Shown here one piece after another: positions 3,496-44,791 of a stretch of DNA of 64,000 nt. How positions within the stretch are numbered: the stretch's first letter is position 1; each line of letters opens with the position of its first letter. The stretch lies in NCBI GenBank assembly GCA_011839185.1, contig GCA_011839185.1_3918.1. One strand, 5' to 3'. The DNA comes from a phage. The position numbers and the translations under genes are program-made. The notes beneath the pieces were generated by a model that made no database searches, was not told the origin of the DNA, and worked only from the letters and a program-made list of their open reading frames with translations.

Positions 3496-4565
3496 TTAAC
3501 CAACACCCAATCTTTTTAGGTGGTGAGAGAAAGACATTTGACTCACTTAACAAGCACTACCCAAAAATCTTTGAGCTATATAAACAACAAAAAGCGCAAG
3601 ACTGGTCAGAAGATGAGTTCCCTTTTGAACAATCACGTCTTGATTTTGAGAGTGTGCCAGCATCAATGTCAGGTGTAATGCTTGAGATTCTTAAGTGGCA
3701 GTGGGAAGCAGATACCCAAGTTGCTAAGAGTTTAGCGTTTGCTTTTGCACCATTCATCTCTGATGACATTTATGCAACTGCAATTATGAAGCAGTCTGAG
3801 ATTGAAAACTTACATGCTCTGACTTACTCAGAGATTGTAAGGCAATGTATTAAAAACCCTGAAACAATCTTAGATGAGATTAACCAGAACATTGCTGTAC
3901 AAGACCGATTAAAAACTGTGAATCGTGTTCTTGAAGAATTGCTGGATGAAGGTATAAACTATCGACTGAGTTATGTCCGTGACTCACTTCTGGACAAAGA
4001 CCCTTTACACTTCCATAAAGTGATTCTGAAAGGTCTATTTGCAGTGACTGCACTGGAAGGTATATCTTTTATGGCATCCTTTGCATGTACTTTTGCACTT
4101 GATGCTCAAGATAAATTTCAGGGTATTGCTCAAGCTGTTCAGAAAATTATGCTTGATGAAATCCTTCACACTAAAATTGATATTGAAGTTTTAAAAGAAA
4201 CTTTAAGAGACGATGAGTGGCAAAAAGCTTTCCAACAAATTCTTCCAGAGATTAAAGTAATCTTAGATGAAGTAGTTGAAAGCGAAGAAAAATGGTCGTA
4301 TTATATCTTCTCCGAAGGACGTGCTGTAGTTGGTTTAAATACAAAGCTTCTCCATGAGTGGGTTTACTATAATGCTGCCCCACTGTATGATATGTTTGGC
4401 ATTCCCAGAGATTTTGTAGCTCCTAAAGAACCACCTCTGAAGTATATGATTAAGAAGATGGAAATTGATAAAGAGCAGAATGCTAATCAGGAGCAACAGA
4501 ACGGCGCGTATTTATTGAATACTGTTGTAGATGATTTGAATAGTGGATTTTTAGAGGTTCCTTAA
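3492..4565 (+). CDS. nrdB: ribonucleotide reductase class Ia small subunit
   Basis: 357 aa immediately downstream of nrdA; size and helical, acidic composition fit the di-iron R2 subunit. Confidence 0.8.
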   Translation: MINQHPIFLGGERKTFDSLNKHYPKIFELYKQQKAQDWSEDEFPFEQSRLDFESVPASMSGVMLEILKWQWEADTQVAKSLAFAFAPFISDDIYATAIMKQSEIENLHALTYSEIVRQCIKNPETILDEINQNIAVQDRLKTVNRVLEELLDEGINYRLSYVRDSLLDKDPLHFHKVILKGLFAVTALEGISFMASFACTFALDAQDKFQGIAQAVQKIMLDEILHTKIDIEVLKETLRDDEWQKAFQQILPEIKVILDEVVESEEKWSYYIFSEGRAVVGLNTKLLHEWVYYNAAPLYDMFGIPRDFVAPKEPPLKYMIKKMEIDKEQNANQEQQNGAYLLNTVVDDLNSGFLEVP

Positions 4566-4807
4566 TGACTTATGTAATTTACTCCAAAACTGGATGCCCT
4601 CAGTGTGAGACTGCAAAGAATTTTGCAAAAGCTCGTGGTATTGACCATGTTGTGAGAATGTTAGGGCAGGACTATGAACTGTCAGACCTGATGGATATTG
4701 CACAGATGCCAGTTCGTCAGATGCCATTCATCATGAAAACTGATGGTCAAAATCTAAAACCTGTTGGGACGCTACAGAATTTTATGGTAGAGGTGAATAA
4801 TGCTTAA
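4565..4807 (+). CDS. glutaredoxin/thioredoxin-like redoxin (NrdH/NrdC-like)
   Basis: 80 aa with CPQC redox motif near the N-terminus; sits between nrdB and nrdD. Confidence 0.6.
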   Translation: MTYVIYSKTGCPQCETAKNFAKARGIDHVVRMLGQDYELSDLMDIAQMPVRQMPFIMKTDGQNLKPVGTLQNFMVEVNNA

Positions 4808-5006
4808 ACGCCTTTGGGAAGGTTTGGTTGTTGATGCACCAGCCATTGTGATTGGTATGCTTGTTGTTAACCTATTTACTGATTTTGAACAAGGTTCATT
4901 GTTTGGAGCCATGCTATTATGGGTTATCTTTGAAATATTAGAGATACAGCTAGGCATCACTGAAAAACTAAGAAAACTCGTTTCAAAGTTTTCTAAAAAG
5001 ATTTAA
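4800..5006 (+). CDS. small hydrophobic protein
   Basis: 68 aa, mostly hydrophobic with a basic C-terminus; overlaps the previous stop. Confidence 0.35.
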   Translation: MLKRLWEGLVVDAPAIVIGMLVVNLFTDFEQGSLFGAMLLWVIFEILEIQLGITEKLRKLVSKFSKKI

Positions 5007-5013
5007 AATGAAA

Positions 5014-5035
5014 GGGTCTCTTCGGAGACCTTTTT
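5014..5035 (+). terminator. rho-independent terminator-like hairpin
   Basis: GGGTCTC-TTCG-GAGACC followed by TTTTT. Confidence 0.55.
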
Positions 5036-5054
5036 AGCATGTAAAGGGGCAATA

Positions 5055-7199
5055 ATGAACAAAGTACAGATTATTAAAAAGAATGGCTCACTTGAAGAAC
5101 CTGATATCAAAAAAGTTTTAGCAGCAGTAACTAAGTCAGCTAACAGGGTTGGGTATAAAGAACTTCCACCAGATGTTACCCAAGCTCTTGAGTCAGCATT
5201 CATGAGGATTCTGGTGAAGTCCACTAAGCAGAATAATTTGCTCATCTCGGTAAATGACATTCACAGTATTGTTGAGGGTGCTTTGGCAGAAGTCAATCAC
5301 GAGATTTACGAGTCTTACTCAACATATAGAAATTACCGTAAAGAGGTTGCTCAAAATTGGGATGAGCTTTACCAAAAGACTAGAGACACACTCTTCTTAG
5401 GTGACCGTGAAAATGCCAACTTTGACAGCAGTTTAATTTCTACAAAAGGTTCAATTATTCGTGGTTATCTGACTAAAGAAATCTTTAAACAATACCATTT
5501 AACACCAGAGGAACTTGAAGCCATTGAAAAAGGGTTTATCTACATCCATGACTTAAGAGACTTAATTTTTGGTGGTATTAACTGCTGCTTGTTTGACATT
5601 GGTAAAGTACTGAAAGGTGGCTTTGAAATGTCTGGCATCGAATATTGTGAACCGAAGTCTGTGCTGTCGGCCTTACAAGTTATTGGTGACGTAGTTCTTT
5701 CAGCAACTGCACAGCAATTTGGTGGCTTTACTTTAGCAGAGATTGACAAGGTACTTGTACCGTATGCTAAGAAGTCTCTACGCTATCATGCTGAGAAAGC
5801 AACATCTTATGGTATTCCTAAAGAACATTACCATAATTATGTCATGGAGCAGTTACAGATTGAATTAACTCAAGGTTTCCAATCACTTGAAATGAAGCTA
5901 AACACTGTACCTTGCAGCCGTGGTGATTTCGCATTCACAACTTTAACATTTGGTTTACTTGACTCAGATATGTCTAATGAAGACAACCGATTACAATACA
6001 TGATTGCAAGTACTCTCCTAGATGTTCGTATGAATGGACAAGGGAAGAGCAAGAAGCCTGTTGTATTTCCTAAACTGGTTTATATTTATGACCAGAAGAG
6101 GCATGATGAAAATATCTGTCAAGGTCAACTGTACAGTAAAGCCATTGAGTGTTGCTCTAAAGCAATGTATCCAGATTTCTTAAGTGTATCTGGTCATGGT
6201 GCTGTAGCAGAGGCTTTTGAGCGTTCTGGCAAGGTAATTTCACCGATGGGTTGCAGAGCCTTCTTATCTCCATATCTTAATGAGGATGGAGAAGAGTTCT
6301 ATGTTGGTCGTGCTAATATTGGTGCTGTATCTTTGAACTTACCAATGATTTATCAGTACGCCAAAGAGAATGGTTTAGATTTCTGGAAAGAGCTTGATAA
6401 GTACCTAGAGATGATTCGCAGCTTCCACAAGAAACGCTACGAAATGATTGCTAATATGCCAGCAAGTTCTAACCCTCTTGCATTCACACAAGGTGGTCTG
6501 TACAAAGGAACTAAGAAACCTACTGACAAGGTTGGTTGGGATATTGTGAAGTCCTTCACAGCTTCTTTTGGGGTTACTGCGCTTGATGAGTTATCTGTTC
6601 TTGCTGAGGGTAAACGACTTCATGAAGTTGGAAGCTATAGTTTTGCATACGATGTTCTGGCATACATCAACATGAAAACTGAAGAGTTTAAAAACGAAGA
6701 TGGCTTCTTATATGCCGTCTATGGTACTCCAGCAGAATCACTTTGTGGAACTCAACTAAAACAGTTCAGAGATATGCTTGGCGTTATTAAAGGTGTTTCT
6801 GACAAGGAATACTTCACAAACAGTTTTCATATGAATGTTGCAGCAGACATCTCACCATTTGAGAAGCAGGACTTAGAAGAGCCATTCTTCCATATCTGTA
6901 GAGGTGGCAGAATCCAGTATGTAAGGGTGGCTAACCCAGAAAACTTATCAGCACTTAAAAGCTGTATTACAAGAGGCATGTTGAAAGGTTTTTATCAGGG
7001 ACTTAACTTTGACTTAGCAATCTGTGAGCATTGTGGTAACAGGCCAAAGGCTGATGTTGAAGAATGTGAAGTTTGTCACTCACATGATATCTCTGTGATT
7101 AACAGGGTGTGTGGGTATCTTGGATGGACTAAGATTAAAGGTGAATCCCGAATGAACGATGCAAAAATCGCTGAGATTCGTGATAGAGTCTCTATGTAA
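5055..7199 (+). CDS. nrdD: anaerobic ribonucleotide reductase class III
   Basis: 714 aa; N-terminal ATP-cone-like segment; C-terminal glycyl-radical motif RVCGYLG; CxxC...CxxC zinc ribbon before it. Confidence 0.9.
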   Translation: MNKVQIIKKNGSLEEPDIKKVLAAVTKSANRVGYKELPPDVTQALESAFMRILVKSTKQNNLLISVNDIHSIVEGALAEVNHEIYESYSTYRNYRKEVAQNWDELYQKTRDTLFLGDRENANFDSSLISTKGSIIRGYLTKEIFKQYHLTPEELEAIEKGFIYIHDLRDLIFGGINCCLFDIGKVLKGGFEMSGIEYCEPKSVLSALQVIGDVVLSATAQQFGGFTLAEIDKVLVPYAKKSLRYHAEKATSYGIPKEHYHNYVMEQLQIELTQGFQSLEMKLNTVPCSRGDFAFTTLTFGLLDSDMSNEDNRLQYMIASTLLDVRMNGQGKSKKPVVFPKLVYIYDQKRHDENICQGQLYSKAIECCSKAMYPDFLSVSGHGAVAEAFERSGKVISPMGCRAFLSPYLNEDGEEFYVGRANIGAVSLNLPMIYQYAKENGLDFWKELDKYLEMIRSFHKKRYEMIANMPASSNPLAFTQGGLYKGTKKPTDKVGWDIVKSFTASFGVTALDELSVLAEGKRLHEVGSYSFAYDVLAYINMKTEEFKNEDGFLYAVYGTPAESLCGTQLKQFRDMLGVIKGVSDKEYFTNSFHMNVAADISPFEKQDLEEPFFHICRGGRIQYVRVANPENLSALKSCITRGMLKGFYQGLNFDLAICEHCGNRPKADVEECEVCHSHDISVINRVCGYLGWTKIKGESRMNDAKIAEIRDRVSM

Positions 7200-37431: not shown

Positions 37432-38847
37432 ATGAGCGAATTATTTAAACATGCGCACCTTCATGCAGGTCGAACTGAAAATGGTGCTGTAAACCATACT
37501 TCATCAATGTCTGCTCTTGTAGACTTTTACAAAGCTGCTGGTTCAAGCCGTAGTAACGTAGAAATCTTACCAGACCTGTTCTACAAAGCTTTGCGTGAGG
37601 ATGTTGATGTTGCAGTTCGTATTTTGCTTCATATGCGAGATGTACGAGAAGGTATGGGTGAGCGTAAAGCCTTCAGAACTGTTTTGCTTCAAGCAATTGA
37701 AGATAAAGTTTTAGAGTCTACGCAGGTTCTTCGCATTATGGATAAGATTGCAGAACTTGGTCGTTTTGATGACTTCAAAATCTTCGTAGGTACTCGTTTC
37801 GAGACAGATGCCTTCAAACATTTAGAAGAAGCATTACTAGACCCTGCAACAGCAGGTTTGGCGGCTAAGTGGTTACCACGAGTCAAACCACGTCATAAGC
37901 AGTTTGTAAAACGTTTCTGCAAGTTTGCCAACTTGAGTGAGAAAGAGTACCGCACACTGTTGTCTGCACTATCTGATACAGTTGAGCAAAAAATCTCTGC
38001 TAATGAGTTTGGTAAGATTGACTACAGTAAGATTCCTTCACTTGCTGCTGCACGTTACCAAAAACTGTTTAACCGTAAAGATGGAGAGCGTTACAAAGCT
38101 TACATCGAGTCCTTATCAAAAGGTGAGGCTAAGATTAATGCTGGTGCTGTTTACCCATACGATGTGATTAAATCTGTCAAGCATGGTAATGCAGATGTTG
38201 CTAATGAGCAGTGGAAAGCACTACCAAACTGGATGGCAGAAGGTGAAAACATCTTGTGTATGTCTGATGTATCAAGTTCAATGTCTTGGGTGAATTTTGG
38301 CTCCATTACTGCTCTGGATATTGGTGTATCACTTGCCTTGTATGTAGCAGAACGCAATACAGGTTGCTTTAAGAATGAGTTGATGGTTTATTCAACAAAC
38401 CCTCACTTCATCGAACTGAGTGGTGATTTACGAAACCGTCATCGTCAGGTGATGCGACACGTTGAATATGGCTCAACTAACTTACAAGCAGCTTTTGACC
38501 GCATTCTTGAGACAGGCAAAAGAAACAACTTGACTCAGAAAGATATGCCAAGTAAGCTTATCATCTTCTCCGATATGGAGTTTAATCAGGTTGATGGGGC
38601 TAACGGTCGTACAAACTTTGAAGCAATTCAGAGTAAGTACAAAAAAGCTGGATATGAGATGCCACAACTGGTATTCTGGTACTTAGCAAACCGTAATGGT
38701 ACTTGCGAAGTATCTGTTAAGGATAACGGTGTAGCAATGGTATCAGGGTTCTCTCCAGCCACTTTAAAAGCTCTGCTTGGTGGTGAGAAGTTTGACCCAA
38801 TCAGTGTAATGCTCAAAGCAGTAATGATTGACCGTTATATCTGGTAA
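37432..38847 (+). CDS. vWA-domain protein with helical N-terminal domain (possible Ro60/Rsr-like or DUF2828-like)
   Basis: 471 aa; MIDAS-type DVSSSM at about residue 279 with downstream T and D residues; ~270-aa helical N-terminal region; directly upstream of the tRNA array. Confidence 0.6.
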   Translation: MSELFKHAHLHAGRTENGAVNHTSSMSALVDFYKAAGSSRSNVEILPDLFYKALREDVDVAVRILLHMRDVREGMGERKAFRTVLLQAIEDKVLESTQVLRIMDKIAELGRFDDFKIFVGTRFETDAFKHLEEALLDPATAGLAAKWLPRVKPRHKQFVKRFCKFANLSEKEYRTLLSALSDTVEQKISANEFGKIDYSKIPSLAAARYQKLFNRKDGERYKAYIESLSKGEAKINAGAVYPYDVIKSVKHGNADVANEQWKALPNWMAEGENILCMSDVSSSMSWVNFGSITALDIGVSLALYVAERNTGCFKNELMVYSTNPHFIELSGDLRNRHRQVMRHVEYGSTNLQAAFDRILETGKRNNLTQKDMPSKLIIFSDMEFNQVDGANGRTNFEAIQSKYKKAGYEMPQLVFWYLANRNGTCEVSVKDNGVAMVSGFSPATLKALLGGEKFDPISVMLKAVMIDRYIW

Positions 38848-38865: not shown

Positions 38866-38894
38866 TTGACAATGTGTTTAATACCCTTTAATAT
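38866..38894 (+). promoter_or_regulatory. sigma70-like promoter
   Basis: TTGACA, 17-nt spacer, TAATAT. Confidence 0.5.
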
Positions 38895-38955: not shown

Positions 38956-38985
38956 TTGACAACCACTAAAAAATAATGTTAAAGT
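38956..38985 (+). promoter_or_regulatory. sigma70-like promoter ahead of the tRNA array
   Basis: TTGACA, 18-nt spacer, TAAAGT. Confidence 0.5.
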
Positions 38986-39011: not shown

Positions 39012-39088
39012 CTCTGTTTAGCTCAGCTTGGTAGAGCGTTCCGTTTGGGGCGGTAAGGCCGGAGGTTCAAGTCCTCCAACAGAGACCA
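39012..39088 (+). tRNA. tRNA-Pro (anticodon TGG)
   Basis: manual cloverleaf: acceptor CTCTGTT/AACAGAG, D-arm GCTCAGCTTGGTAGAGC, T-arm GGAGGTTCAAGTCCTCC, encoded CCA. Confidence 0.8.
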
Positions 39089-39095
39089 AATTAAT

Positions 39096-39173
39096 GTTCC
39101 AGTGGACAAAATGGTAAAGTCACCACTCTTTCAAAGTGGATATTTGAGGGTTCAAATCCCTTCTGGAACGCCA
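39096..39173 (+). tRNA. tRNA-Glu (anticodon TTC)
   Basis: acceptor GTTCCAG/CTGGAAC, anticodon arm CCACT-CTTTCAA-AGTGG, T-loop TTCAAAT, encoded CCA. Confidence 0.75.
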
Positions 39174-39180
39174 GTTTTGA

Positions 39181-39253
39181 CAGAAGACCAATTACAGCAA
39201 ACTTAATCTTATTCATCTGAAGGTAAATCGGACAAAGAAGAGATTTGGTCTGG
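39181..39253 (+). ncRNA. candidate structured element A (hairpin with conserved bulged closing stem)
   Basis: 5' CAGAAGACCAAT ... ATTTGGTCTGG 3'; AT-rich ~48-nt interior; one of four related elements. Confidence 0.35.
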
Positions 39254-39264
39254 TCATTAAGAAT

Positions 39265-39341
39265 TGCGGGTATAGAGAAAGGGCGTCTCACATGTCTCAT
39301 TAGCATGGTATCGGCAGGTTCGACTCCTGCACCCGCCTCCA
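39265..39341 (+). tRNA. tRNA with CAT anticodon (Met or Ile2)
   Basis: acceptor TGCGGGT/ACCCGCC with 1-72 mismatch, anticodon arm CATGT-CTCATTA-GCATG, T-arm GCAGGTTCGACTCCTGC, encoded CCA. Confidence 0.65.
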
Positions 39342-39347
39342 AATTTA

Positions 39348-39411
39348 CAGAAGACCGTTTACAGCAATATTTATTAAATTTTTAGCGGAAAAATTGAAAG
39401 ATACGGTCTGG
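39348..39411 (+). ncRNA. candidate structured element B
   Basis: 5' CAGAAGACCGTTTACAGCAA ... ACGGTCTGG 3'. Confidence 0.35.
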
Positions 39412-39424
39412 TAATACTAAACAT

Positions 39425-39501
39425 GGTTAGGAAGCACATAAGGTATGTGCGGTCGCCTGTTAAGCGAATGGCACAGGGTTCGAATCCCTGACTAACCGCC
39501 A
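39425..39501 (+). tRNA. tRNA-Asn (anticodon GTT)
   Basis: acceptor GGTTAGG/ACTAACC, D-arm GCACATAAGGTATGTGC, loop CTGTTAA, T-arm CAGGGTTCGAATCCCTG, encoded CCA. Confidence 0.75.
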
Positions 39502-39570
39502 AATTTAGGAGAGAAGCGATTGCTCACCGATTTGTAAGGTGCAAGTCCTTAGCCTGAATAGAAATCAAAT

Positions 39571-39658
39571 GTGTCGTTATCCCGTAGATGGTAGCGGTGG
39601 GGACTGTAAATCCCTTGTCATTGAGACTCGGTAGGTTCGACTCCTACACGGCACACCA
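39571..39658 (+). tRNA. tRNA-Tyr (anticodon GTA), long variable arm
   Basis: 88 nt; acceptor GTGTCGT/ACGGCAC, loop CTGTAAA, T-arm GTAGGTTCGACTCCTAC, encoded CCA. Confidence 0.75.
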
Positions 39659-39663
39659 ATAAA

Positions 39664-39741
39664 GGTTATGTAGTTTAATTTGGTTAAAATACTCCCCTGT
39701 CACGGGAGATGATGAGGGTTCAAATCCCTTCGTAACCGCCA
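39664..39741 (+). tRNA. tRNA-Asp (anticodon GTC)
   Basis: acceptor GGTTATG/CGTAACC, arm CTCCC-CTGTCAC-GGGAG, T-arm GAGGGTTCAAATCCCTT, encoded CCA. Confidence 0.8.
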
Positions 39742-39769
39742 ATTTTGAGAGGGCTATTTAGCCCCTCCC

Positions 39770-39797
39770 TTAAAGGGTTCTTACGAGTATCCTTTAA
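39770..39797 (+). promoter_or_regulatory. conserved hairpin with GTTCTTACGAG loop (copy 1 of 4)
   Basis: TTAAAGG-GTTCTTACGAGTAT-CCTTTAA. Confidence 0.4.
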
Positions 39798-39802
39798 AGG
39801 AG

Positions 39803-39876
39803 CAGAAGACCAAATACAGCAAGTTACTTAAAATTTCAAGCCAATTTAATTTTGAAAAATTTAAAACTTGGTCTGG
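39803..39876 (+). ncRNA. candidate structured element C
   Basis: 5' CAGAAGACCAAATACAGCAA ... CTTGGTCTGG 3'. Confidence 0.35.
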
Positions 39877-39889
39877 CTCAACAAATTTA

Positions 39890-40020
39890 CAGAAGACCGT
39901 TTACAGCAAAACTTAAACAATCTATTTCTCGGTAAAGAAAAGGCGAAGGTTCGATTCCTTCACTCGGCAGATGTCGAGTTGGTGTAATGGTAGCACTTAA
40001 GATGATAAACAACGGTCTGG
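39890..40020 (+). ncRNA. candidate structured ncRNA D: closing stem as A-C, enclosing a permuted tRNA-like module
   Basis: CAGAAGACCGTT ... AACGGTCTGG; inside in order: T-arm GAAGGTTCGATTCCTTC, 7-bp acceptor-like hairpin ACTCGGC-AGAT-GTCGAGT, D-arm GTGTAATGGTAGCAC. Confidence 0.45.
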
Positions 40021-40021
40021 T

Positions 40022-40165
40022 AATTATCTTTGTAGATAAGTTATTAAGCTTACCTGTGAGTATGCGACCACAAAGGGTGAAAGGGTAAATTCTAGATTTA
40101 AACCTAAAAAGGCACATCGCTACAGACCTTAAGCAAGTCTGGGTAGCTTATCTACAAAGATAATT
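40022..40165 (+). repeat. long inverted repeat (19-bp perfect arms) enclosing about 106 nt
   Basis: AATTATCTTTGTAGATAAG (40022-40040) and its exact reverse complement (40147-40165). Confidence 0.6.
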
Positions 40166-40169
40166 TAAT

Positions 40170-40245
40170 GGAAGTGTAGCAGAATGGTGATGCGGCAGAC
40201 TTTTAATCTGACAGGCGATGGGTTCGAATCCCTCCACTTCTACCA
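40170..40245 (+). tRNA. tRNA-Lys (anticodon TTT)
   Basis: acceptor GGAAGTG/CACTTCT, loop CTTTTAA, T-loop TTCGAAT, encoded CCA; T-stem imperfect in my parse. Confidence 0.65.
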
Positions 40246-40323
40246 AATTCACCCTTAACTGAGAAACACCTGCGCGGCTGGAAACACCCACTCAACAGTT
40301 TCTCTAACTAGGGTACTTATTCT

Positions 40324-40400
40324 GGTTCAGTCGCAGATAAGGTAATGCAAGGGTCTCATAAGCCCTATGAATGTGGGTTCGATTCCCATCTGAACCTCCA
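40324..40400 (+). tRNA. tRNA with CAT anticodon (Met, fMet or Ile2)
   Basis: acceptor GGTTCAG/CTGAACC, anticodon stem with three G-C pairs (AGGGT/GCCCT), loop CTCATAA, T-arm GTGGGTTCGATTCCCAT, encoded CCA. Confidence 0.7.
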
Positions 40401-40416
40401 ATTCGTTGGTGATATT

Positions 40417-40902
40417 ATGTTTTGTGCTAATAAAGATTGTGACAACAAAGCCGTTAAAGGTGGAAAGTATTGTTCACGCTCTTGTGCTGCAAGGGTAAAC
40501 AACAAGAGTCATCCAAAAAGAAGACAAGAAGGCTCTTGTCATTCATGTGGAAAGCAGACACCAAAATCAAGAAAGTATTGTGATGAATGTATTTCAAATG
40601 GTATTCTGAAACAATACAAAAACCCCGATGAAGAAAAGAAAGCGAAGTCACAACACGTTAAAAAGTCTCGTGACAAACTTAAGAGGGTTTTAGTTGATTA
40701 CAAAGGTGGTTGTTGCTCAATTTGTGGATACAATAAGTGCATAAAGGCTTTAGAGTTTCACCACTTAGACCCTAATACAAAGGACTTCACAGTAGGACAA
40801 AAACACTTCTCTATAGAGGTAATGAAGTCTGAAGTTGATAAGTGTGTATTACTGTGTGCAAATTGCCACAGAGAGGTACACGAAGGGGTAACAAAGCTGT
40901 GA
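40417..40902 (+). CDS. HNH homing-endonuclease-like protein with N-terminal zinc ribbons (start trimmed past the tRNA)
   Basis: C-terminal EFHHLDP...LLCANCHREVH HNH motif; several CxxC pairs; ORF-track start 40345 lies inside the tRNA. Confidence 0.65.
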   Translation: MFCANKDCDNKAVKGGKYCSRSCAARVNNKSHPKRRQEGSCHSCGKQTPKSRKYCDECISNGILKQYKNPDEEKKAKSQHVKKSRDKLKRVLVDYKGGCCSICGYNKCIKALEFHHLDPNTKDFTVGQKHFSIEVMKSEVDKCVLLCANCHREVHEGVTKL

Positions 40903-40971
40903 AAGCACATATGGATGTGCATTCGGCTGATAACCGAAAGGCAGAAGGTTCGAATCCTTCTCACAGTACCA
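40896..40971 (+). tRNA. tRNA-Ile (anticodon GAT)
   Basis: acceptor GCTGTGA/TCACAGT, D-arm GCACATATGGATGTGC, arm TTCGG-CTGATAA-CCGAA, T-arm GAAGGTTCGAATCCTTC, encoded CCA; first 7 nt overlap the HNH stop codon. Confidence 0.75.
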
Positions 40972-40986
40972 ATTTCAATAAAGTTG

Positions 40987-41015
40987 TTGACATTGAGATG
41001 TGACTACTTTATAGT
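40987..41015 (+). promoter_or_regulatory. sigma70-like promoter inside the tRNA array
   Basis: TTGACA, 17-nt spacer, TATAGT. Confidence 0.55.
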
Positions 41016-41182
41016 AACCTTAGTTTTCGTTGCGTAGCGTCTATTTTGCAAATTTAAAATAAATGCAAACGACAATGTTTTTCTGGCAGTAGCTTGATAG
41101 GCTAAACACCAGTGAGGTCTTCCAATCCCTCATCAAAGAATTTGGCGTACTCGCCCACGGTATGATTAATAAGGTGGGCATC

Positions 41183-41210
41183 TTTAAGGGCTTTCTAAGA
41201 GAGTCTTTAA
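41183..41210 (+). promoter_or_regulatory. conserved hairpin-motif variant (copy 2 of 4)
   Basis: GGCTTTCTAAGAGAGTCTTTAAAG, about 10 nt upstream of tRNA-Arg. Confidence 0.3.
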
Positions 41211-41218
41211 AGATTAAT

Positions 41219-41295
41219 GCACCCTTAGTTCAACTGGACAGAGCAAATGACTTCTAATCATTGAGTTACAGGTTCGAATCCTGTAGGGTGTGCCA
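41219..41295 (+). tRNA. tRNA-Arg (anticodon TCT)
   Basis: acceptor GCACCCT/AGGGTGT, arm AATGA-CTTCTAA-TCATT, T-arm ACAGGTTCGAATCCTGT, encoded CCA. Confidence 0.8.
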
Positions 41296-41437
41296 ATTAG
41301 TTAGCAGATTACTTAGACGACCTTATCGGGTCTCCGTGTAAGGAGGTGGTCTGTATCTCATGTTTTCCAGAACATGTAAATAATCTGAGAAGGGGCTTTA
41401 CAGTGTTGAGATAACAGGGTAAGCTTCGAATTATAGT

Positions 41438-41520
41438 ATGGGACGATGTTAAGACTCTAAGGCATGAGCAACGGCTTCCAACACCGTTTCAAAGGGGTTC
41501 AACTCCTCCGTCCCATGCCA
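41438..41520 (+). tRNA. atypical tRNA-like gene, anticodon CCA (Trp-type), about 7 extra nt between acceptor and D-arm
   Basis: 3' two-thirds parse canonically (arm ACGGC-TTCCAAC-ACCGT, T-loop TTCAACT, acceptor GTCCCAT, CCA) but the complementary 5' acceptor sits 7 nt too far upstream. Confidence 0.3.
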
Positions 41521-41533
41521 AAGTCTTATTAGG

Positions 41534-41621
41534 GGTAGGTAGCGGCTAATGGTAGCCAAACTGTCTTGAAAACAGTTGCCACTGTAGAGATACGGTGAGG
41601 GTTCGACTCCTTTACTTACCG
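41534..41621 (+). tRNA. tRNA-Ser (anticodon TGA), long variable arm
   Basis: 88 nt; acceptor GGTAGGT/ACTTACC, 3-bp D-stem, arm ACTGT-CTTGAAA-ACAGT, T-loop TTCGACT; no encoded CCA. Confidence 0.65.
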
Positions 41622-41843
41622 CCTAATAAGATTTAAAGCCAAGCTTCATTCGGATGTTGCTTTGGTATCCCTCGTGTATTGTCGTACACACTGATAAAGC
41701 ACCTAGTAGGTGTCACGGAGAAGAGATAATATCAAGCTCTCCAAAGGTTCTAGTCACCGGATTAAACAAGACTATGCAAAGACCTATTTAGGTCTTTTTA
41801 GAGGGCTTCTAAGGTTATTACAGCTTGTTGTGGAACCTTGTTG

Positions 41844-41868
41844 CTTAGGTTCTTAGAAGTTCTCTAAA
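41844..41868 (+). promoter_or_regulatory. conserved hairpin-motif variant (copy 3 of 4)
   Basis: TTAGGTTCTTAGAAGTTCTCTAA, about 10 nt upstream of a tRNA. Confidence 0.3.
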
Positions 41869-41878
41869 AAGATTTAAT

Positions 41879-41955
41879 GCACCTATAGCCCAACTGGTAG
41901 AGGCAGCAGACTTAGAATCTGCTCAGTGTGAGTTCGAATCTCTCTAGGTGTACCA
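41879..41955 (+). tRNA. tRNA with Leu anticodon TAG, class-I-length variable loop
   Basis: perfect anticodon stem GCAGA/TCTGC with loop CTTAGAA; Leu-like D-loop AACTGGTAGA; discriminator A; 5-nt variable loop. Confidence 0.6.
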
Positions 41956-41962
41956 AATTAAT

Positions 41963-42038
41963 GCAGGTGTAGCAAAATGGTTATGCGGCTGACTCTTAAT
42001 CAGTAAGACGATGGGTTCAATTCCCTCCACCTGTACCA
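41963..42038 (+). tRNA. tRNA-Lys (anticodon CTT)
   Basis: acceptor GCAGGTG/CACCTGT, loop CTCTTAA, T-loop TTCAATT, encoded CCA. Confidence 0.65.
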
Positions 42039-42044
42039 AACATT

Positions 42045-42120
42045 GGGGTCATAGTTTATATGGTTAAAATTCGAGTTTTGCAAACTTGGGAACTGAGTTC
42101 AATTCTCAGTGACTCCACCA
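42045..42120 (+). tRNA. tRNA-Ala (anticodon TGC)
   Basis: acceptor GGGGTCA/TGACTCC with G3-U70 wobble (Ala identity element), loop TTTGCAA, T-arm CTGAGTTCAATTCTCAG, encoded CCA. Confidence 0.8.
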
Positions 42121-42125
42121 ATTAG

Positions 42126-42201
42126 TGCATCCATAGTTTAAACGGGAAAATTACAGTCTTCCAAACTGAGGTTGAGGGTTCGATTCCCTCTGGATGCTCC
42201 A
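42126..42201 (+). tRNA. tRNA-Gly (anticodon TCC)
   Basis: acceptor GCATCCA/TGGATGC, loop CTTCCAA, T-arm GAGGGTTCGATTCCCTC, encoded CCA. Confidence 0.75.
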
Positions 42202-42208
42202 AATTAAT

Positions 42209-42284
42209 GCTCCTATCGTATAATTGGCTATTACGGTTGCCTTGTAAGCAACTTATCAGGGTTCGAATCCTTGTGGGAGCACCA
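42209..42284 (+). tRNA. tRNA-Thr (anticodon TGT)
   Basis: acceptor GCTCCTA/TGGGAGC, arm GTTGC-CTTGTAA-GCAAC, T-arm CAGGGTTCGAATCCTTG, encoded CCA. Confidence 0.8.
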
Positions 42285-42287
42285 ATT

Positions 42288-42376
42288 CAGAGGTCAAGTG
42301 AAAGACCGCTTTGAGTCAACTGAAGACCGTAACAAATTCCACGGAGTTGAGTTAGCGGCACAACTCCAGACCTCTT
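42288..42376 (+). ncRNA. candidate structured element E between tRNA-Thr and tRNA-Val
   Basis: 7-bp closing stem AGAGGTC/GACCTCT enclosing an internal hairpin GGAGTTG...CAACTCC and a GAAGACCG word shared with elements B and D. Confidence 0.3.
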
Positions 42377-42380
42377 TCAT

Positions 42381-42455
42381 ACTCGCTTAGTTTATATGGT
42401 AAAACATCACCCTTACAAGATGAAGAAAAAGGTTCAAGTCCTTTAGTGAGTACCA
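42381..42455 (+). tRNA. tRNA-Val (anticodon TAC)
   Basis: acceptor ACTCGCT/AGTGAGT, loop CTTACAA, T-arm AAAGGTTCAAGTCCTTT, encoded CCA. Confidence 0.7.
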
Positions 42456-42456
42456 T

Positions 42457-42534
42457 GTTCCAGTATCCCAATTGGCAGAGGATGCAAGCTCAAACCTTGT
42501 ACTAGTGACGGTTCGAATCCGTCTTGGAACACCA
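42457..42534 (+). tRNA. tRNA with Leu anticodon CAA, class-I-length variable loop
   Basis: acceptor GTTCCAG/TTGGAAC, Leu-like D-loop CAATTGGCAGA, loop CTCAAAC, T-arm GACGGTTCGAATCCGTC, discriminator A, encoded CCA. Confidence 0.55.
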
Positions 42535-42539
42535 ATTTT

Positions 42540-42615
42540 GCAGGATTAGTTCAAATGGATAGAGCAACAGTCTACGAAGCTGTTAGTAGGGGTTCGAATC
42601 CCTTATCCTGCGCCA
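42540..42615 (+). tRNA. tRNA-Arg (anticodon ACG)
   Basis: acceptor GCAGGAT/ATCCTGC, arm ACAGT-CTACGAA-GCTGT, T-loop TTCGAAT, encoded CCA. Confidence 0.75.
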
Positions 42616-42633
42616 GATAAGCAAGAGGAATTT

Positions 42634-42876
42634 ATGCAAACATTAATCGTCGTTGAACATGAAAATCCCAACAGTATTGAGTTTGTAAGGGTTCCCACTA
42701 TAGATACTCACATTTTCTTGAAAGTCGGATGGGAATGCGACCCGATAAAAGTAGGAAAATTTCTTGGTCATTACTTTGGTGGAAGACAATTTAAAAGTAT
42801 CAATTTTGAGACAGTATTACCAGAAAACTCAGAAACAGACAATAATACTTACCTCCTTACGAGGATTAGACAATGA
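42634..42876 (+). CDS. hypothetical protein inside the tRNA array
   Basis: ORF track 80 aa; does not overlap any tRNA. Confidence 0.45.
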   Translation: MQTLIVVEHENPNSIEFVRVPTIDTHIFLKVGWECDPIKVGKFLGHYFGGRQFKSINFETVLPENSETDNNTYLLTRIRQ

Positions 42877-43430
42877 GATACTTAAAATATGTTTCATGGA
42901 TTTTCTTAGCTTTGTTAGAACCATTTGCAGCAACCCTAGCAGTCATCTTAGCACCTTTCGTAGTTCCATTCTACAGTGAGAAGAAAGGGCATCTACCTTT
43001 TGGATTCAGATGGATGGAGACCTATGACAACCCTATTGATGGTGACAAAGGCCACGTTGAGAGATGGGCTAAGATTAGAAAGATTGGTAAGCTTGGTGTC
43101 TACATGCAGAGAGTTGGATGGCTCTGGAGAAACAAAGCTTATAACTTCTCTTACCATGTATTAGGAAGAGATGTAAAAGACGTTACTAAGTGGAAAGGTA
43201 ATATCAACGTAAGTTCTAACCCTGAAGATAATCAAACAGGTTATCTCCTAATGTGGAATAGCAATGCTTGGGGATTATTTGCTTTTATCCCATCAATTAA
43301 AGTCTTTGGTAAACAGTTTTACTGGAGAATTTATATTGGATGGAAACTAAAAAGTGTTGTCCCAGAAGAAAGAGCATTCTCAAGGGAAAGAGTTATGTTG
43401 GCATTCTTTATTCATCCACTGAGAAAGTAA
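42873..43430 (+). CDS. hypothetical protein with N-terminal hydrophobic segment
   Basis: 185 aa; Trp/aromatic-rich; start overlaps the upstream stop. Confidence 0.5.
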   Translation: MRYLKYVSWIFLALLEPFAATLAVILAPFVVPFYSEKKGHLPFGFRWMETYDNPIDGDKGHVERWAKIRKIGKLGVYMQRVGWLWRNKAYNFSYHVLGRDVKDVTKWKGNINVSSNPEDNQTGYLLMWNSNAWGLFAFIPSIKVFGKQFYWRIYIGWKLKSVVPEERAFSRERVMLAFFIHPLRK

Positions 43431-43438
43431 AGATTTAA

Positions 43439-43514
43439 AGGGGATTAGTTTACAAGGTTAAAACCTCGGTCTTTGAAATCGAAGAAGTTGGTTCAATTCC
43501 AACATCCCCCGCCA
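43439..43514 (+). tRNA. tRNA-Gln (anticodon TTG)
   Basis: acceptor AGGGGAT/ATCCCCC with weak 1-72 pair, arm TCGGT-CTTTGAA-ATCGA, T-arm GTTGGTTCAATTCCAAC, encoded CCA. Confidence 0.7.
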
Positions 43515-43516
43515 AT

Positions 43517-43595
43517 GCTCCATTACTCCAATTGGCAGAGAGGCCAGACTTAAAATCTGTGTTATGTATCGGTTCGAATCCGATATGGAGTACCA
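43517..43595 (+). tRNA. tRNA with Leu anticodon TAA, short variable loop
   Basis: acceptor GCTCCAT/ATGGAGT, Leu-like D-loop CAATTGGCAGA, loop CTTAAAA, T-arm ATCGGTTCGAATCCGAT, discriminator A, encoded CCA; anticodon stem imperfect. Confidence 0.5.
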
Positions 43596-43600
43596 AATTT

Positions 43601-43675
43601 AGCGGTATAGCATAACTGGCAATGCAACAGTCTCTGAAGCTGTCCTATTAAGGTTCAAATCCTTATGCCGCTGCC
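43601..43675 (+). tRNA. tRNA-Gln (anticodon CTG)
   Basis: acceptor AGCGGTA/TGCCGCT, arm ACAGT-CTCTGAA-GCTGT, T-arm TAAGGTTCAAATCCTTA, encoded CCA. Confidence 0.7.
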
Positions 43676-43680
43676 ACTTC

Positions 43681-43704
43681 TAAGGGTTCTTACGAGAGTC
43701 CTTA
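43681..43704 (+). promoter_or_regulatory. conserved hairpin with GTTCTTACGAG loop (copy 4 of 4)
   Basis: TAAGG-GTTCTTACGAGAGT-CCTTA just upstream of tRNA-His. Confidence 0.4.
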
Positions 43705-43707
43705 AAT

Positions 43708-43783
43708 GTGGCCTTATCATAAATGGTAATGACCCATGCTGTGAACATGGTCTATACGGGTTCAAATCCCGTAGGTCACCCCA
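43708..43783 (+). tRNA. tRNA-His (anticodon GTG)
   Basis: acceptor GTGGCCT/AGGTCAC, arm CCATG-CTGTGAA-CATGG, T-arm ACGGGTTCAAATCCCGT, discriminator C, encoded CCA; no encoded G at -1. Confidence 0.7.
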
Positions 43784-43789
43784 ATTTAT

Positions 43790-43865
43790 AGTCCAAGTAG
43801 CTTATATGGTTAAAGCGCGTGTCTGAAAAACATGAGAAGAGGGTTCAAATCCCACTGGACTACCA
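43790..43865 (+). tRNA. tRNA-Phe (anticodon GAA)
   Basis: D-arm GCTTATATGGTTAAAGC, arm CGTGT-CTGAAAA-ACATG, T-loop TTCAAAT, CCA; acceptor pairing imperfect so ends are approximate. Confidence 0.6.
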
Positions 43866-43881
43866 ATTTCAAAGGTGCTTA

Positions 43882-44616
43882 ATGAAAGAGATGACAGAAC
43901 AAGGTAAGGAGATTTTTAATCTCTTAAAAACCGGTAAAGGGTTCTCTAACCCACTTATTACTGGTGCAGCAGTTCTCGGTGGAACCGTAGCTGCTTCTAC
44001 ATCACTTGTAAGCTCTATTAGTTCTGTAACAGACCCTACAATGAAGGAGAAACTTGTTGCTGCTGGACTTACAACAGTCCTTCTAAACAGCTTTACAACA
44101 AGCCTTACAAGCACTACAGCAACTACTAAGACCCTAACAGACTACGGTCAAAAGTCTATTGATGAGTTTTCATCACGTATGCAGGTAGCAAAGGGATACT
44201 CCAATGTTATGGGTGCAGCAGGAGAACAAGTTGGTTGTACACCATTCAGTGGTATTATGGGTGTTGCTACAGAGTATGGTCAAAAAGCTATTGACATGAT
44301 GAACAGTACACTAGATAGTGTTAATGGTGTGTTAAGTGACTTACAAGATGCTATTGACAAAGGTCTTGATACTATTTCTGATTTAGCTGAGCAAGCTGTT
44401 AGTAAGATTAATGAAGGTATTTCAAAAATTACAGCTTATGCAGATGAAGTTGTGCAGATGATTGAAGAAGAAGCTGCTCTTATTGCAGAGTACCTTAAAA
44501 CGAATATCAATGGGTTCTTAGCAGGTATCTTACCAGACTGGTTTGATGATGCCTGTAAAACTGGTGTAATTGACACTATTGCAACACCAGAAATGAAGAA
44601 CGCATTACAGAAATAA
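43882..44616 (+). CDS. hypothetical protein (Ser/Thr-rich segment then helical region; start trimmed past tRNA-Phe)
   Basis: ATG at 43882 preceded by AAAGGTG; ORF-track start 43819 lies inside the tRNA. Confidence 0.5.
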   Translation: MKEMTEQGKEIFNLLKTGKGFSNPLITGAAVLGGTVAASTSLVSSISSVTDPTMKEKLVAAGLTTVLLNSFTTSLTSTTATTKTLTDYGQKSIDEFSSRMQVAKGYSNVMGAAGEQVGCTPFSGIMGVATEYGQKAIDMMNSTLDSVNGVLSDLQDAIDKGLDTISDLAEQAVSKINEGISKITAYADEVVQMIEEEAALIAEYLKTNINGFLAGILPDWFDDACKTGVIDTIATPEMKNALQK

Positions 44617-44618
44617 AT

Positions 44619-44711
44619 GGAAGATTAACCCTAAAAGGTAAGGGAGCAGTTTGCTAAACTGCCAGTAGCTGAGAAATCGGTGTACCAGTTCAAGTCTGGT
44701 ATCTTCCTCCA
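44619..44711 (+). tRNA. tRNA-Ser (anticodon GCT), long variable arm
   Basis: 93 nt; acceptor GGAAGAT/ATCTTCC, arm GCAGT-TTGCTAA-ACTGC, T-arm ACCAGTTCAAGTCTGGT, encoded CCA. Confidence 0.75.
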
Positions 44712-44715
44712 ATTT

Positions 44716-44791
44716 GAATCCGTGACAGAAATGGCTATGTGCCTGTCTGCAAAACAGGTTTATAAGGGTTCGAGTCCCTTCGGATTCTCCA
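44716..44791 (+). tRNA. tRNA-Cys (anticodon GCA)
   Basis: acceptor GAATCCG/CGGATTC, arm CCTGT-CTGCAAA-ACAGG, T-arm AAGGGTTCGAGTCCCTT, encoded CCA. Confidence 0.8.

Follow-up and report, generated by a model that had tools for sequence, protein, structure and literature searches.

The stretch of phage DNA analyzed here, a window of 64,000 nucleotides (contig GCA_011839185.1_3918.1), is ~99% identical to Felix O1-type phages (Felixounavirus). Its plus strand carries an array of 26 tRNA genes (39012-44791), which is preceded by the gene of a protein with a predicted Ro60 fold. The 428-nt gap between the tRNA-Asp and tRNA-Lys genes harbors the subject of this report, a tRNA-like RNA termed element D, and three shorter relatives (elements A, B and C) occur in the same array. 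Ro60 proteins and Y RNAs are conserved from bacteria to humans, and their bacterial and viral roles are poorly understood. Judging from comparative sequence evidence, element D is probably a YrlA-like, tRNA-mimicking Y RNA that belongs to a distinct, phage-borne subfamily and has the upstream DUF2828 protein of Ro60 fold as its partner.

Structure of element D

The principal features of the locus are as follows.

37432-38847, plus strand: gene of a 471-amino-acid Ro60-like protein (DUF2828 and DUF7788/vWA), the proposed partner (Pfam, PHROG, AlphaFold2/Foldseek)
39887-40023, plus strand: element D as a whole, a tRNA-mimicking Y-like RNA of ~137 nt (minimum free energy (MFE) fold; RNAalifold consensus; 147 bits with covariance model R1 and 112 bits with R2)
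39887-39909, plus strand: 5' half of the Y module of D, with outer helix strand UUAC (39887-39890) and internal loop AGA (39891-39893)
39894-39901, plus strand: 5' strand of the inner helix, AGACCGUU, pairing with AACGGUCU (40011-40018)
39902-39909, plus strand: single-stranded motif UACAGCAA, adjoining the inner helix
39925-39944, plus strand: V hairpin UUUCU-CGGUAA-AGAAA, then variable-loop-like AGGC (MFE fold, RNAalifold consensus)
39945-39961, plus strand: T arm GAAGG-UUCGAUU-CCUUC (sequence, fold, covariation)
39962-39979, plus strand: acceptor-like hairpin ACUCGGC-AGAU-GUCGAGU of 7 bp (one G.U), closed and without CCA (sequence, fold, covariation)
39980-39981, plus strand: U8-G9 linker, UG (sequence)
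39982-39996, plus strand: D arm GUGU-AAUGGUA-GCAC, with a 4-bp stem and equivalents of A14, G18, G19 and A21
40011-40023, plus strand: 3' half of the Y module, comprising AACGGUCU (40011-40018), an unpaired G (40019) and outer helix strand GUAA (40020-40023)

The initial annotation had described a T arm, an acceptor-like hairpin and a D arm in permuted order within a closing stem, and all of the strings that it quoted are indeed present in that order (39945-39996). The D arm, which had been given 3-bp GTG and CAC strands, is there and is better read as the 4-bp stem GUGU-AAUGGUA-GCAC. The closing stem consists of AGACCGUU and AACGGUCU plus the outer UUAC/GUAA helix, and it covaries across the family. 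Folding without constraints recovered every helix of D in the MFE structure, including the V hairpin. Nucleotides that form the elbow of a tRNA are also in place, namely a U8 after the acceptor 3' strand, the D loop AAUGGUA, the T loop UUCGAUU and a pyrimidine before the T stem. The acceptor loop is an AGAU tetraloop with U at position -1 (39972), and a putative RNase P site lies between 39972 and 39973.

It had further been proposed that the ends of a tRNA were moved to the position of the anticodon stem. The permutation stands, but the ends do not lie simply at the anticodon stem. Because a weak hairpin (the V hairpin) and a variable-loop-like tail of 4-5 nt (AGGC, GGUC) precede the T arm, the Y stem appears to sit as an insertion between the D arm and a vestige of the anticodon arm, represented by the V hairpin.

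Conservation and covariation

All four elements, A to D, occur in Felixounavirus, Suspvirus and Mooglevirus. Within the Ounavirinae the T and D arms of element D are almost invariant, and the acceptor-like stem has been wholly replaced yet is paired in three genera. The window has ACUCGGC-AGAU-GUCGAGU, Suspvirus and most Shigella phages have ACACG-UUACGG-CGUGU, and Moogle and HP1 have ACCCUUC-GCCAAACA-GAAGGGU, where the loop is composed of a discriminator, CCA and a 4-nt spacer. The loop of the V hairpin in Suspvirus is the 7-nt CUGGUAA. Yersinia phage P778, whose protein is 53% identical to that of the window, has analogous elements between its tRNAs with different and covarying stems (for example UGC-ACA-GGACUGU-UUACAGCAA...ACAGUCC-A-GCA and GGAUUC/GAAUCC), and one of these copies retains the V hairpin and T arm. 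The family as a whole spans phages of Enterobacteria, Yersinia, Cronobacter, Aeromonas and Mycobacterium, together with many metagenomic viruses.

A covariance model built from nine D sequences (R1, which scores D of the window at 147 bits) was run against 818 kb of sequence, made up of the window together with seven annotated phage loci and 80 viral contigs that all encode DUF2828 proteins (38-99% identity in the contigs). Of its 112 matches, 111 fell on the strand of the Ro-like gene, and the full-length ones lay beside the protein gene in distant phages. The second model, R2, was built from distant phage sequences and included no Felix-like sequence; it ranked D of the window first (112 bits, E ~1e-22), with 80 of 80 matches on the strand of the gene. 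A model-free pattern was also applied. It required a helix of 7 bp whose second position is G, then, after a gap of 0-1 nt, U-[AUC]-C-[ACU]-GCAA, and, 30-260 nt downstream, the perfect complement of the helix with a purine after it. This pattern matched 121 times on the strand of the gene, in 58 of the 80 DUF2828 loci, versus twice on the other strand.

Pairing in the family was quantified in two alignments. In A4 (35 distinct sequences), 94.5% of cells were paired versus 39-45% when slid by ±1 to 3 columns, with a covariation score of 0.37 versus 0.05-0.07; the corresponding values for A6 (61 distinct sequences) were 89.1% versus 36-46% and 0.35 versus 0.02-0.07. Changes on both sides were seen at 28 of 31 pairs in each alignment. 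The inner helix is 97% paired, with six of its seven pairs changing on both sides, and the T arm is 97-98% paired, likewise with changes on both sides; its loop is UUCGAAU, UUCGAUU or UUCGAGU in 17 of 20 members. All seven pairs of the acceptor-like stem show compensatory changes, the stem has 7 bp in 17 of the 20 members with a tRNA domain, and a U follows its 3' strand in every one of the 20. NCCA opens the acceptor loop in six of the 20, including Moogle, HP1, S13 and the loci L033 and L075. Of all the helices, the V hairpin is the weakest, with 68-84% pairing in the family. The consensus of the stem is A-N-A-R-G-R-NNNN-(U)U-W-C-A-G-C-A-A ... A-A-A-N-NNNN-Y-C-U-G, and the G-C pair at helix position 2 is found in 57 of 59 sequences.

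Mycobacteriophage Faith1 (L010) illustrates the distant members. Three tandem, unannotated Y-like elements (4446-4712) directly follow gp55, a 'Ro-like RNA binding protein', and an intrinsic terminator closes the series. All three stems, GGACGC/GCGUCC, GGACUCC/GGAGUCC and GGUCAC/GUGACC, have UA(A)CAGCAA after them, and the middle element carries the full tRNA-like domain.

A coding interpretation of the same DNA was rejected. A minus-strand open reading frame (ORF) of 76 codons (39887-40117) is annotated as 'hypothetical protein' in some records, but the genera differ in length by numbers not divisible by three, and the substitutions compensate one another within the RNA stems. Such annotations over D are thus probably spurious, on the evidence of the sequence comparison.

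Some loci gave observations beyond the main family. An IMG/VR Felixounavirus contig (L020, 6450-6583) holds a disrupted D that scores 70 bits versus ~147; its 5' half and T arm are intact and its acceptor, D arm and 3' stem are replaced, which suggests a rearrangement or insertion at D in some strains. P778 (L004) has a long tRNA-like sequence with a large insertion at 6009-6149 that matches tmRNA weakly (E 0.0025), and an isolated T-arm-containing element at ~6340-6390 of the same tRNA array. In Listeria phage A511 (L013), a match to the ROOL RNA (1465-2016; 87.5 bits, gathering score 99.1) lies among tRNA genes ~1 kb upstream of the DUF2828 Ro-like gp57, and matches to the Y module in that locus are weak.

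Paralogues A to C

The three shorter elements of the array are as follows.

39178-39256, plus strand: element A, a short Y-like RNA without tRNA domain, between tRNA-Glu and tRNA-Met (R1 41.7 bits, R2 35.9 bits); within it, outer helix UGAC/GUCA, loop AGA/G and inner helix AGACCAA/UUGGUCU, then UUACAGCAA
39345-39414, plus strand: element B, a short Y-like RNA between tRNA-Met and tRNA-Asn (R1 54.1 bits, R2 42.5 bits); within it, outer helix UUAC/GUAA and inner helix AGACCGU/ACGGUCU, then UUACAGCAA
39800-39879, plus strand: element C, a short Y-like RNA whose SUSP2 and Moogle orthologues match R2 at 36.5 and 34.8 bits; within it, outer helix GAGC/GCUC and inner helix AGACCAA/UUGGUCU, then AUACAGCAA

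Common to A through D are an outer 4-bp helix that differs in sequence among the paralogues and keeps its complementarity (UGAC/GUCA, UUAC/GUAA, GAGC/GCUC), an asymmetric internal loop (5' AGA, 3' G), an inner helix AGACCnn(n)/(n)nnGGUCU with covariation at its variable positions, and a single-stranded U/A-U/A-ACAGCAA motif (UACAGCAA in D). The exact string CAGAAGACC has four copies in the window, all within the first kilobase of the array, and GGTCTGG lies 57-124 nt downstream of each copy. Only D carries the tRNA-like domain. A set of short RNAs together with one tRNA-like RNA is the YrlA/YrlB pattern known from bacterial Ro60 loci (PMC4201824).

The position of these elements admits an explanation in which A to D are cis-acting processing or insulator structures, such as RNase III or RNase E sites, and D is a leftover of a tandem tRNA duplication that helps to recruit RNase P, none of the four acting in trans or having a link to the Ro-like protein. 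The elements do lie directly between tRNA genes, ~4-10 nt from their ends; many related loci also have tRNA genes on the same strand; and in Moogle, L033, L075 and S13 the acceptor loop contains NCCA plus a spacer, like a tRNA-tRNA junction. The RNA is nevertheless found beside Ro-like genes with no tRNA gene within 3-4 kb, in Faith1 (three elements), in L033 (five elements) and in L038, which argues against a mere processing signal of a tRNA operon. A generic site for a double-strand-specific nuclease would not be expected to have a fixed A-N-A/G loop or an invariant UWCAGCAA that is single-stranded, and the co-occurrence tracks the protein gene and not the tRNAs. We consider this explanation unlikely.

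The upstream Ro60-like protein

The gene at 37432-38847 lies 1.04 kb upstream of D on the same strand. Its product matches Pfam DUF7788 (1.7e-43) and DUF2828 (9.5e-30) as well as PHROG 850 ('RNA-binding protein'), and an NCBIfam search assigned it to no family. An AlphaFold model based on 40 homologues had a predicted local distance difference test score (pLDDT) of 85.6 and a predicted template modeling score (pTM) of 0.86. When this model was compared to the PDB with Foldseek, the top 12 matches were all Ro60/TROVE structures (E 3e-9 to 5e-7, template modeling (TM) scores 0.4-0.66), and matches included Xenopus Ro60, Deinococcus Rsr and the Ro60 of Thermus phage phiLo over 517-560 aligned columns. 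The fold is known solely via structure prediction and Foldseek, because searches of the PDB by sequence (phmmer and a profile search) returned nothing meaningful. Given its marginal profile-level link to a true TROVE protein, we take the DUF2828 protein, with its predicted fold, to be a remote paralogue of Ro60 rather than an orthologue. By tblastn, the protein family is present in 710 phage records, including mycobacteriophage proteins annotated as 'Ro-like RNA binding protein'.

A homologue has a described function. The Ro60-like gp130 of Felixounavirus Bas63, encoded directly upstream of tRNA genes, was shown by a 2024 genetic screen to counter the Ppl defence, and the authors of that study could do no more than speculate that Y RNAs exist there, perhaps among the annotated tRNAs (bioRxiv 10.1101/2024.10.10.617714).

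Relationship to YrlA and other known RNAs

YrlA RNAs have a V-T-AS-D architecture, occur beside Ro60 and have their ends in a stem (PMC4201824; bioRxiv 10.1101/312249). The initial annotation had likened D to this type, and the analogy is supported more strongly than could be known from the letters alone, given the V-T-AS-D order of D with its conserved U8, D-loop GG and T-loop UUCRANY, the Ro60-fold gene ~1 kb upstream and an RNA that tracks Ro-like genes. Membership in the curated family, on the other hand, is not borne out. The covariance model of YrlA (RF02553) has no match at 39887-40023 even at E<=10, and Rfam scans of the array (gathering threshold; E<=10) returned nothing but tRNAs and noise at the site.

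Like YrlA, element D lies near a Ro60-fold gene on the same strand, has paired ends, and is composed of V, a T arm with tRNA-type loop, a closed acceptor-like stem, a U-R linker and a D arm, again with a tRNA-type loop. Further traits shared by the D family are conserved D- and T-loop nucleotides, shorter YrlB-like paralogues and, for most members, a pyrimidine ahead of the T stem. A YrlA RNA is expected to be bound by Ro60/Rsr in vivo, to carry pseudouridine from TruB and dihydrouridine from DusA, and to have a Ro60 orthologue within ~4 kb on the same strand; the gene found upstream of D has the Ro60 fold but is of DUF2828 type, with marginal similarity to TROVE. The more general hallmarks of Y RNAs, pairing of the 5' and 3' ends in a conserved bulged helix and co-occurrence with the protein gene, are both present. 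Instead of the GNCGAAN0-1G motif of YrlA, the D family has a helix of 7 bp (R-G-R-NNNN) with an A-N-A/G loop and UWCAGCAA, and while the partner of YrlA is a TROVE+vWA_Ro60 protein, that proposed for the D family is DUF2828+DUF7788.

Controls separated the two groups. RF02553 matched mycobacteriophage ET08 beside its TROVE-type Ro gene (37.4 bits, E 9e-6), where R1 found nothing and R2 found the YrlA tRNA-like core only; conversely, RF02553 had no match in Faith1, P778, Moogle and four other DUF2828 loci. Because detection fails both ways in the ET08 and Faith1 controls, there would appear to be two parallel pairings, TROVE with YrlA and DUF2828 with a 'CAGCAA' class of RNAs, in which the presumed protein-binding modules differ and the tRNA-like domain is common.

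Assignment to other known classes was rejected as well. As for YrlA, there is no Rfam match at D for tmRNA or tmRNA_permuted. A canonical tRNA is excluded by the permuted order, and neither ARAGORN nor the Rfam tRNA model (RF00005) calls a tRNA at 39742-40169. A dimeric-tRNA junction does not fit, as the outer tRNA halves are missing and the module is flanked by the paired strands of the Y stem.

Among other systems, Thermus phage phiLo encodes Ro60 with Yrl1 and Yrl2, and Ro60/Yrl/PNPase complexes have been described (PMC12135203). It resembles the window in having a phage-encoded Ro60 with adjacent Y-like RNAs, and the structures of the phiLo protein (9kop, 9l5y) are among the best fold matches of the DUF2828 protein. 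The phiLo protein was, however, reported as a Ro60 homologue from UniProt (PMC12135203), and its RNAs, unlike D, were chosen by a bulged CGAA motif, with no description of them as tRNA-like. The Y RNAs of metazoans and Deinococcus share with D a bulged terminal helix, which binds Ro there, and a second module, which there recruits an effector such as PNPase; they differ in the sequence of the helix (GGUCCGA/UUGACC), and the metazoan ones lack a full tRNA-like domain. Like D, the permuted tRNA genes of Cyanidioschyzon merolae and two-piece or permuted tmRNA encode the 3' half before the 5' half, and models of tandem-tRNA origin apply in both cases. They mature into functional acceptors with an anticodon or tag frame, whereas D has a closed acceptor, no anticodon loop and a putative protein-binding stem.

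The D subfamily is absent from Rfam 15. Our literature search found no publication describing a D-type RNA, the phage list of Chen et al. 2014 being outside that search; as far as it is summarized in PMC12135203, that list contains mycobacteriophages, CcrColossus and Bacillus phage G, genomes picked for an annotated TROVE-domain protein.

Proposed role

Two promoter-like sites precede the array.

38866-38894 and 38956-38985, plus strand: two sigma-70-like promoters ahead of the tRNA/Y-RNA array (consensus scan, 10 of 12 matches each)

No terminator-like site was found on the plus strand downstream of both sites before 44954 (consensus matches only). From the sites at 38866 and 38956, elements A to D would be co-transcribed with the tRNAs, and D may be released by the nucleases that trim the neighboring tRNAs. 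The 5' and 3' ends of D would then pair through the outer helix, the AGA/G loop and the inner helix (AGACC.../...GGUCU). Co-occurrence with the protein gene and the structures of Ro/Y RNA complexes suggest that this bulged helix, together with the single-stranded UACAGCAA (CAGCAA), is the docking site for the ring of the Ro-like protein, and A to C would offer the same site. D alone would add a tRNA-shaped domain made up of a T arm, a 7-bp acceptor-like helix, a D arm and elbow nucleotides. The Ro/Y RNA/PNPase complexes of bacteria, the phiLo complexes and YrlA, on which TruB, DusA and RNase P act (PMC4201824), suggest by analogy that the elbow could be presented to a tRNA-recognizing factor, for which an exoribonuclease, RNase P, the CCA-adding enzyme and modification enzymes are candidates. 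Such a factor might be tethered to the Ro-like protein in this way, or the protein might be gated, so that RNA turnover is remodeled during infection. The initial annotation had suggested that the mimic could engage tRNA-binding enzymes or titrate a host factor.

Several points weigh against a YrlA-like RNA that works with the DUF2828 protein. The MFE z-score of D is just -2.19, which makes thermodynamics alone weak evidence for the structure. Both alignments (A4, A6) had been fitted to the model and the training set of R2 was picked with R1, and the statistics accordingly lean towards structure; some weak matches, as in L014, are dimeric-tRNA false positives. The GNCGAAN0-1G motif (GNCGAA/CGAA, the presumed Ro60 contact) is absent from D, whose 5' region reads UUACAGAAGACCGUUUACAGCAA. 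A comparison with a true TROVE protein by hhalign gave 64% probability and covered the MIDAS motif (metal ion-dependent adhesion site) of vWA only, and because similarity to TROVE at the sequence level is marginal, the Ro relationship depends on the predicted structure. A literature search found no Felixounavirus transcriptome. Moreover, gp130 alone, plasmid-borne or in T7, counters Ppl (bioRxiv 10.1101/2024.10.10.617714), so at least its anti-Ppl activity does not require these RNAs. Since gp130 works without them, modulation or redirection of the protein is a more probable role for the RNAs than that of an obligatory component in that activity.

If the Ro-like protein is set aside, D could be a free-standing tRNA decoy that, by imitating the elbow and acceptor of a tRNA, soaks up a tRNA-targeting defence nuclease or tRNA-binding sensor of the host. 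Most known tRNA-directed defence nucleases cut the anticodon loop, and this usual target is missing in D. A strongly conserved tRNA-like core would suit a decoy, as would the view that phage tRNA clusters counter tRNA nucleases (bioRxiv 10.1101/2024.10.10.617714), yet the Y module common to A-C and the tight, strand-specific linkage to DUF2828 would be left unexplained. A free-standing decoy is, in our estimation, distinctly unlikely.

Topology and origin

Cronobacter phage S13 (L015, 4895-5296) contains the same modules twice in ordinary tRNA order, followed by a permuted copy. The ordinary order runs acceptor 5' strand, D arm, Y helix hairpin GCAAACU-GACA-AGUUUGU, AUUCAGCA, V, T arm, acceptor 3' strand and ACCA, and the GACA tetraloop of the Y hairpin is made up of the conserved loop residues of the Y module. 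The '121-nt tRNA-Ser' and '113-nt tRNA-OTHER' of the S13 records are these non-permuted tRNA-like RNAs with a Y-helix hairpin insert, ending in ACCA or GCCA; ARAGORN makes no tRNA call on the tRNA-like RNAs at 4895-5296. The acceptor loop of Moogle and HP1, with its discriminator, CCA and 4-nt spacer, looks exactly like a tandem tRNA-tRNA junction. These arrangements support, at the level of sequence, a modular D-type RNA that arose from tandem tRNAs, an origin already proposed by Sim and Wolin as cited in 10.1101/312249.

RNase P may open some members, as it does the YrlA of M. smegmatis, an RNA that is cut by this enzyme and acquires CCA (PMC4201824). That RNA shares with D the 7-bp acceptor-like stem, the feature held responsible for the cleavage; it differs from D of the window, whose AGAU tetraloop is closed and without CCA. 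When the halves of the tRNA domain were re-permuted, ARAGORN called a tRNA in 14 of 18 members, but also in 70% of shuffled-hairpin controls. The loop of the V hairpin is 7 nt long in 6 of 16 members, and in five of those position 2 is U and position 6 a purine; that the V hairpin is an anticodon-arm remnant is offered only as a remark.

It is very unlikely that D is a permuted or split tRNA gene whose acceptor hairpin would be opened by RNase P and by 3' trimming or CCA addition, giving a nicked, CCA-ended and aminoacylated molecule for translation or tmRNA-like rescue. The 7-bp acceptor helix with U at -1 (39972), the NCCA directly after the acceptor 3' strand in 6 of 20 members, the S13 modules in ordinary order ending in ACCA and the processing of M. 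smegmatis YrlA (PMC4201824) would accord with it. Against it, the window and the Felixounavirus and Suspvirus copies have loops without CCA (AGAU, AGGU or UUACGG), a conserved anticodon loop is lacking (the V hairpin being weak, variable and sometimes absent), and there is no mRNA-like part, with the conserved Y module left without a role.

Implications

With element D read as a tRNA-mimicking Y RNA, the array supplies concrete Y RNA candidates for gp130 of Bas63, in the form of four unannotated RNAs between tRNA genes of which one is a tRNA mimic. The uncharacterized DUF2828 family gains a testable RNA partner and a candidate binding site, because the RNA signature accompanies DUF2828 proteins in most of the sampled phage loci. 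The CCA-spacer junctions that have been kept, and the presence of both topologies side by side in one phage, are offered as evidence for a tandem-tRNA origin of tRNA-like Y RNAs. For annotation, we note that 252 phage records match the region of the window, that no RNA gene is annotated in the spacer 39742-40169 in any of the listed matching records, and that several records show spurious small ORFs, or nothing, over the elements.

A broader reading is tentatively raised. DUF2828 and the 'CAGCAA' RNAs could constitute a second, largely phage-borne Ro/Y-RNA system parallel to TROVE/YrlA, with a modular, tRNA-shaped member in both permutations, its ends lying in the presumed Ro-binding stem in Felix O1, whereas in S13 that stem would be a hairpin and the ACCA end free. 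In many phages RNase P and CCA processing would open this RNA to a nicked, CCA-bearing mimic; the resulting ribonucleoprotein might sense, protect or destroy tRNAs in the conflict with host defence.

Other structured elements in the array

Directly 3' of D, a structured element of ~140 nt (40024-40164, plus strand) is closed by a stem of ~18 bp and has an MFE of -47.1 kcal/mol (z = -5.3). The closing stem covaries across genera (UUUGUAGAUAAG/CUUAUCUACAAA versus UUUGCAGUGAC/GUUACUGCAAA), and an internal arm, CUAC-AGAC-C-UUAAGCAA-GUCU-GG-GUAG, resembles a miniature hairpin form of the Y module. The spacer between tRNA-Asn and tRNA-Tyr (39502-39570, plus strand) contains a T-arm-like hairpin, UAAGG-UGCAAGU-CCUUA, whose UGCAANU loop is a variant also found in the T arm of a distant family member (L075:5569-5714).

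A small hairpin with a conserved UUACGAG (UNCG-type) loop is repeated at 39773-39797 and 43682-43706 of the window, just upstream of element C and after tRNA-Gln, and at ~5726-5752 of P778 (L004); its stems vary among phages and keep their pairing. Finally, the spacer between tRNA-Ile and tRNA-Arg (40982-41218, plus strand) opens with the best promoter-like site of the array (40987-41015, 11 of 12 matches) and has a weak Rfam match to tmRNA or permuted tmRNA (20.3 bits, E 0.0028). Its counterpart in Moogle (L003, 5853-6187) scores 29.8 bits, and the spacer may be another tRNA-like or structured RNA.

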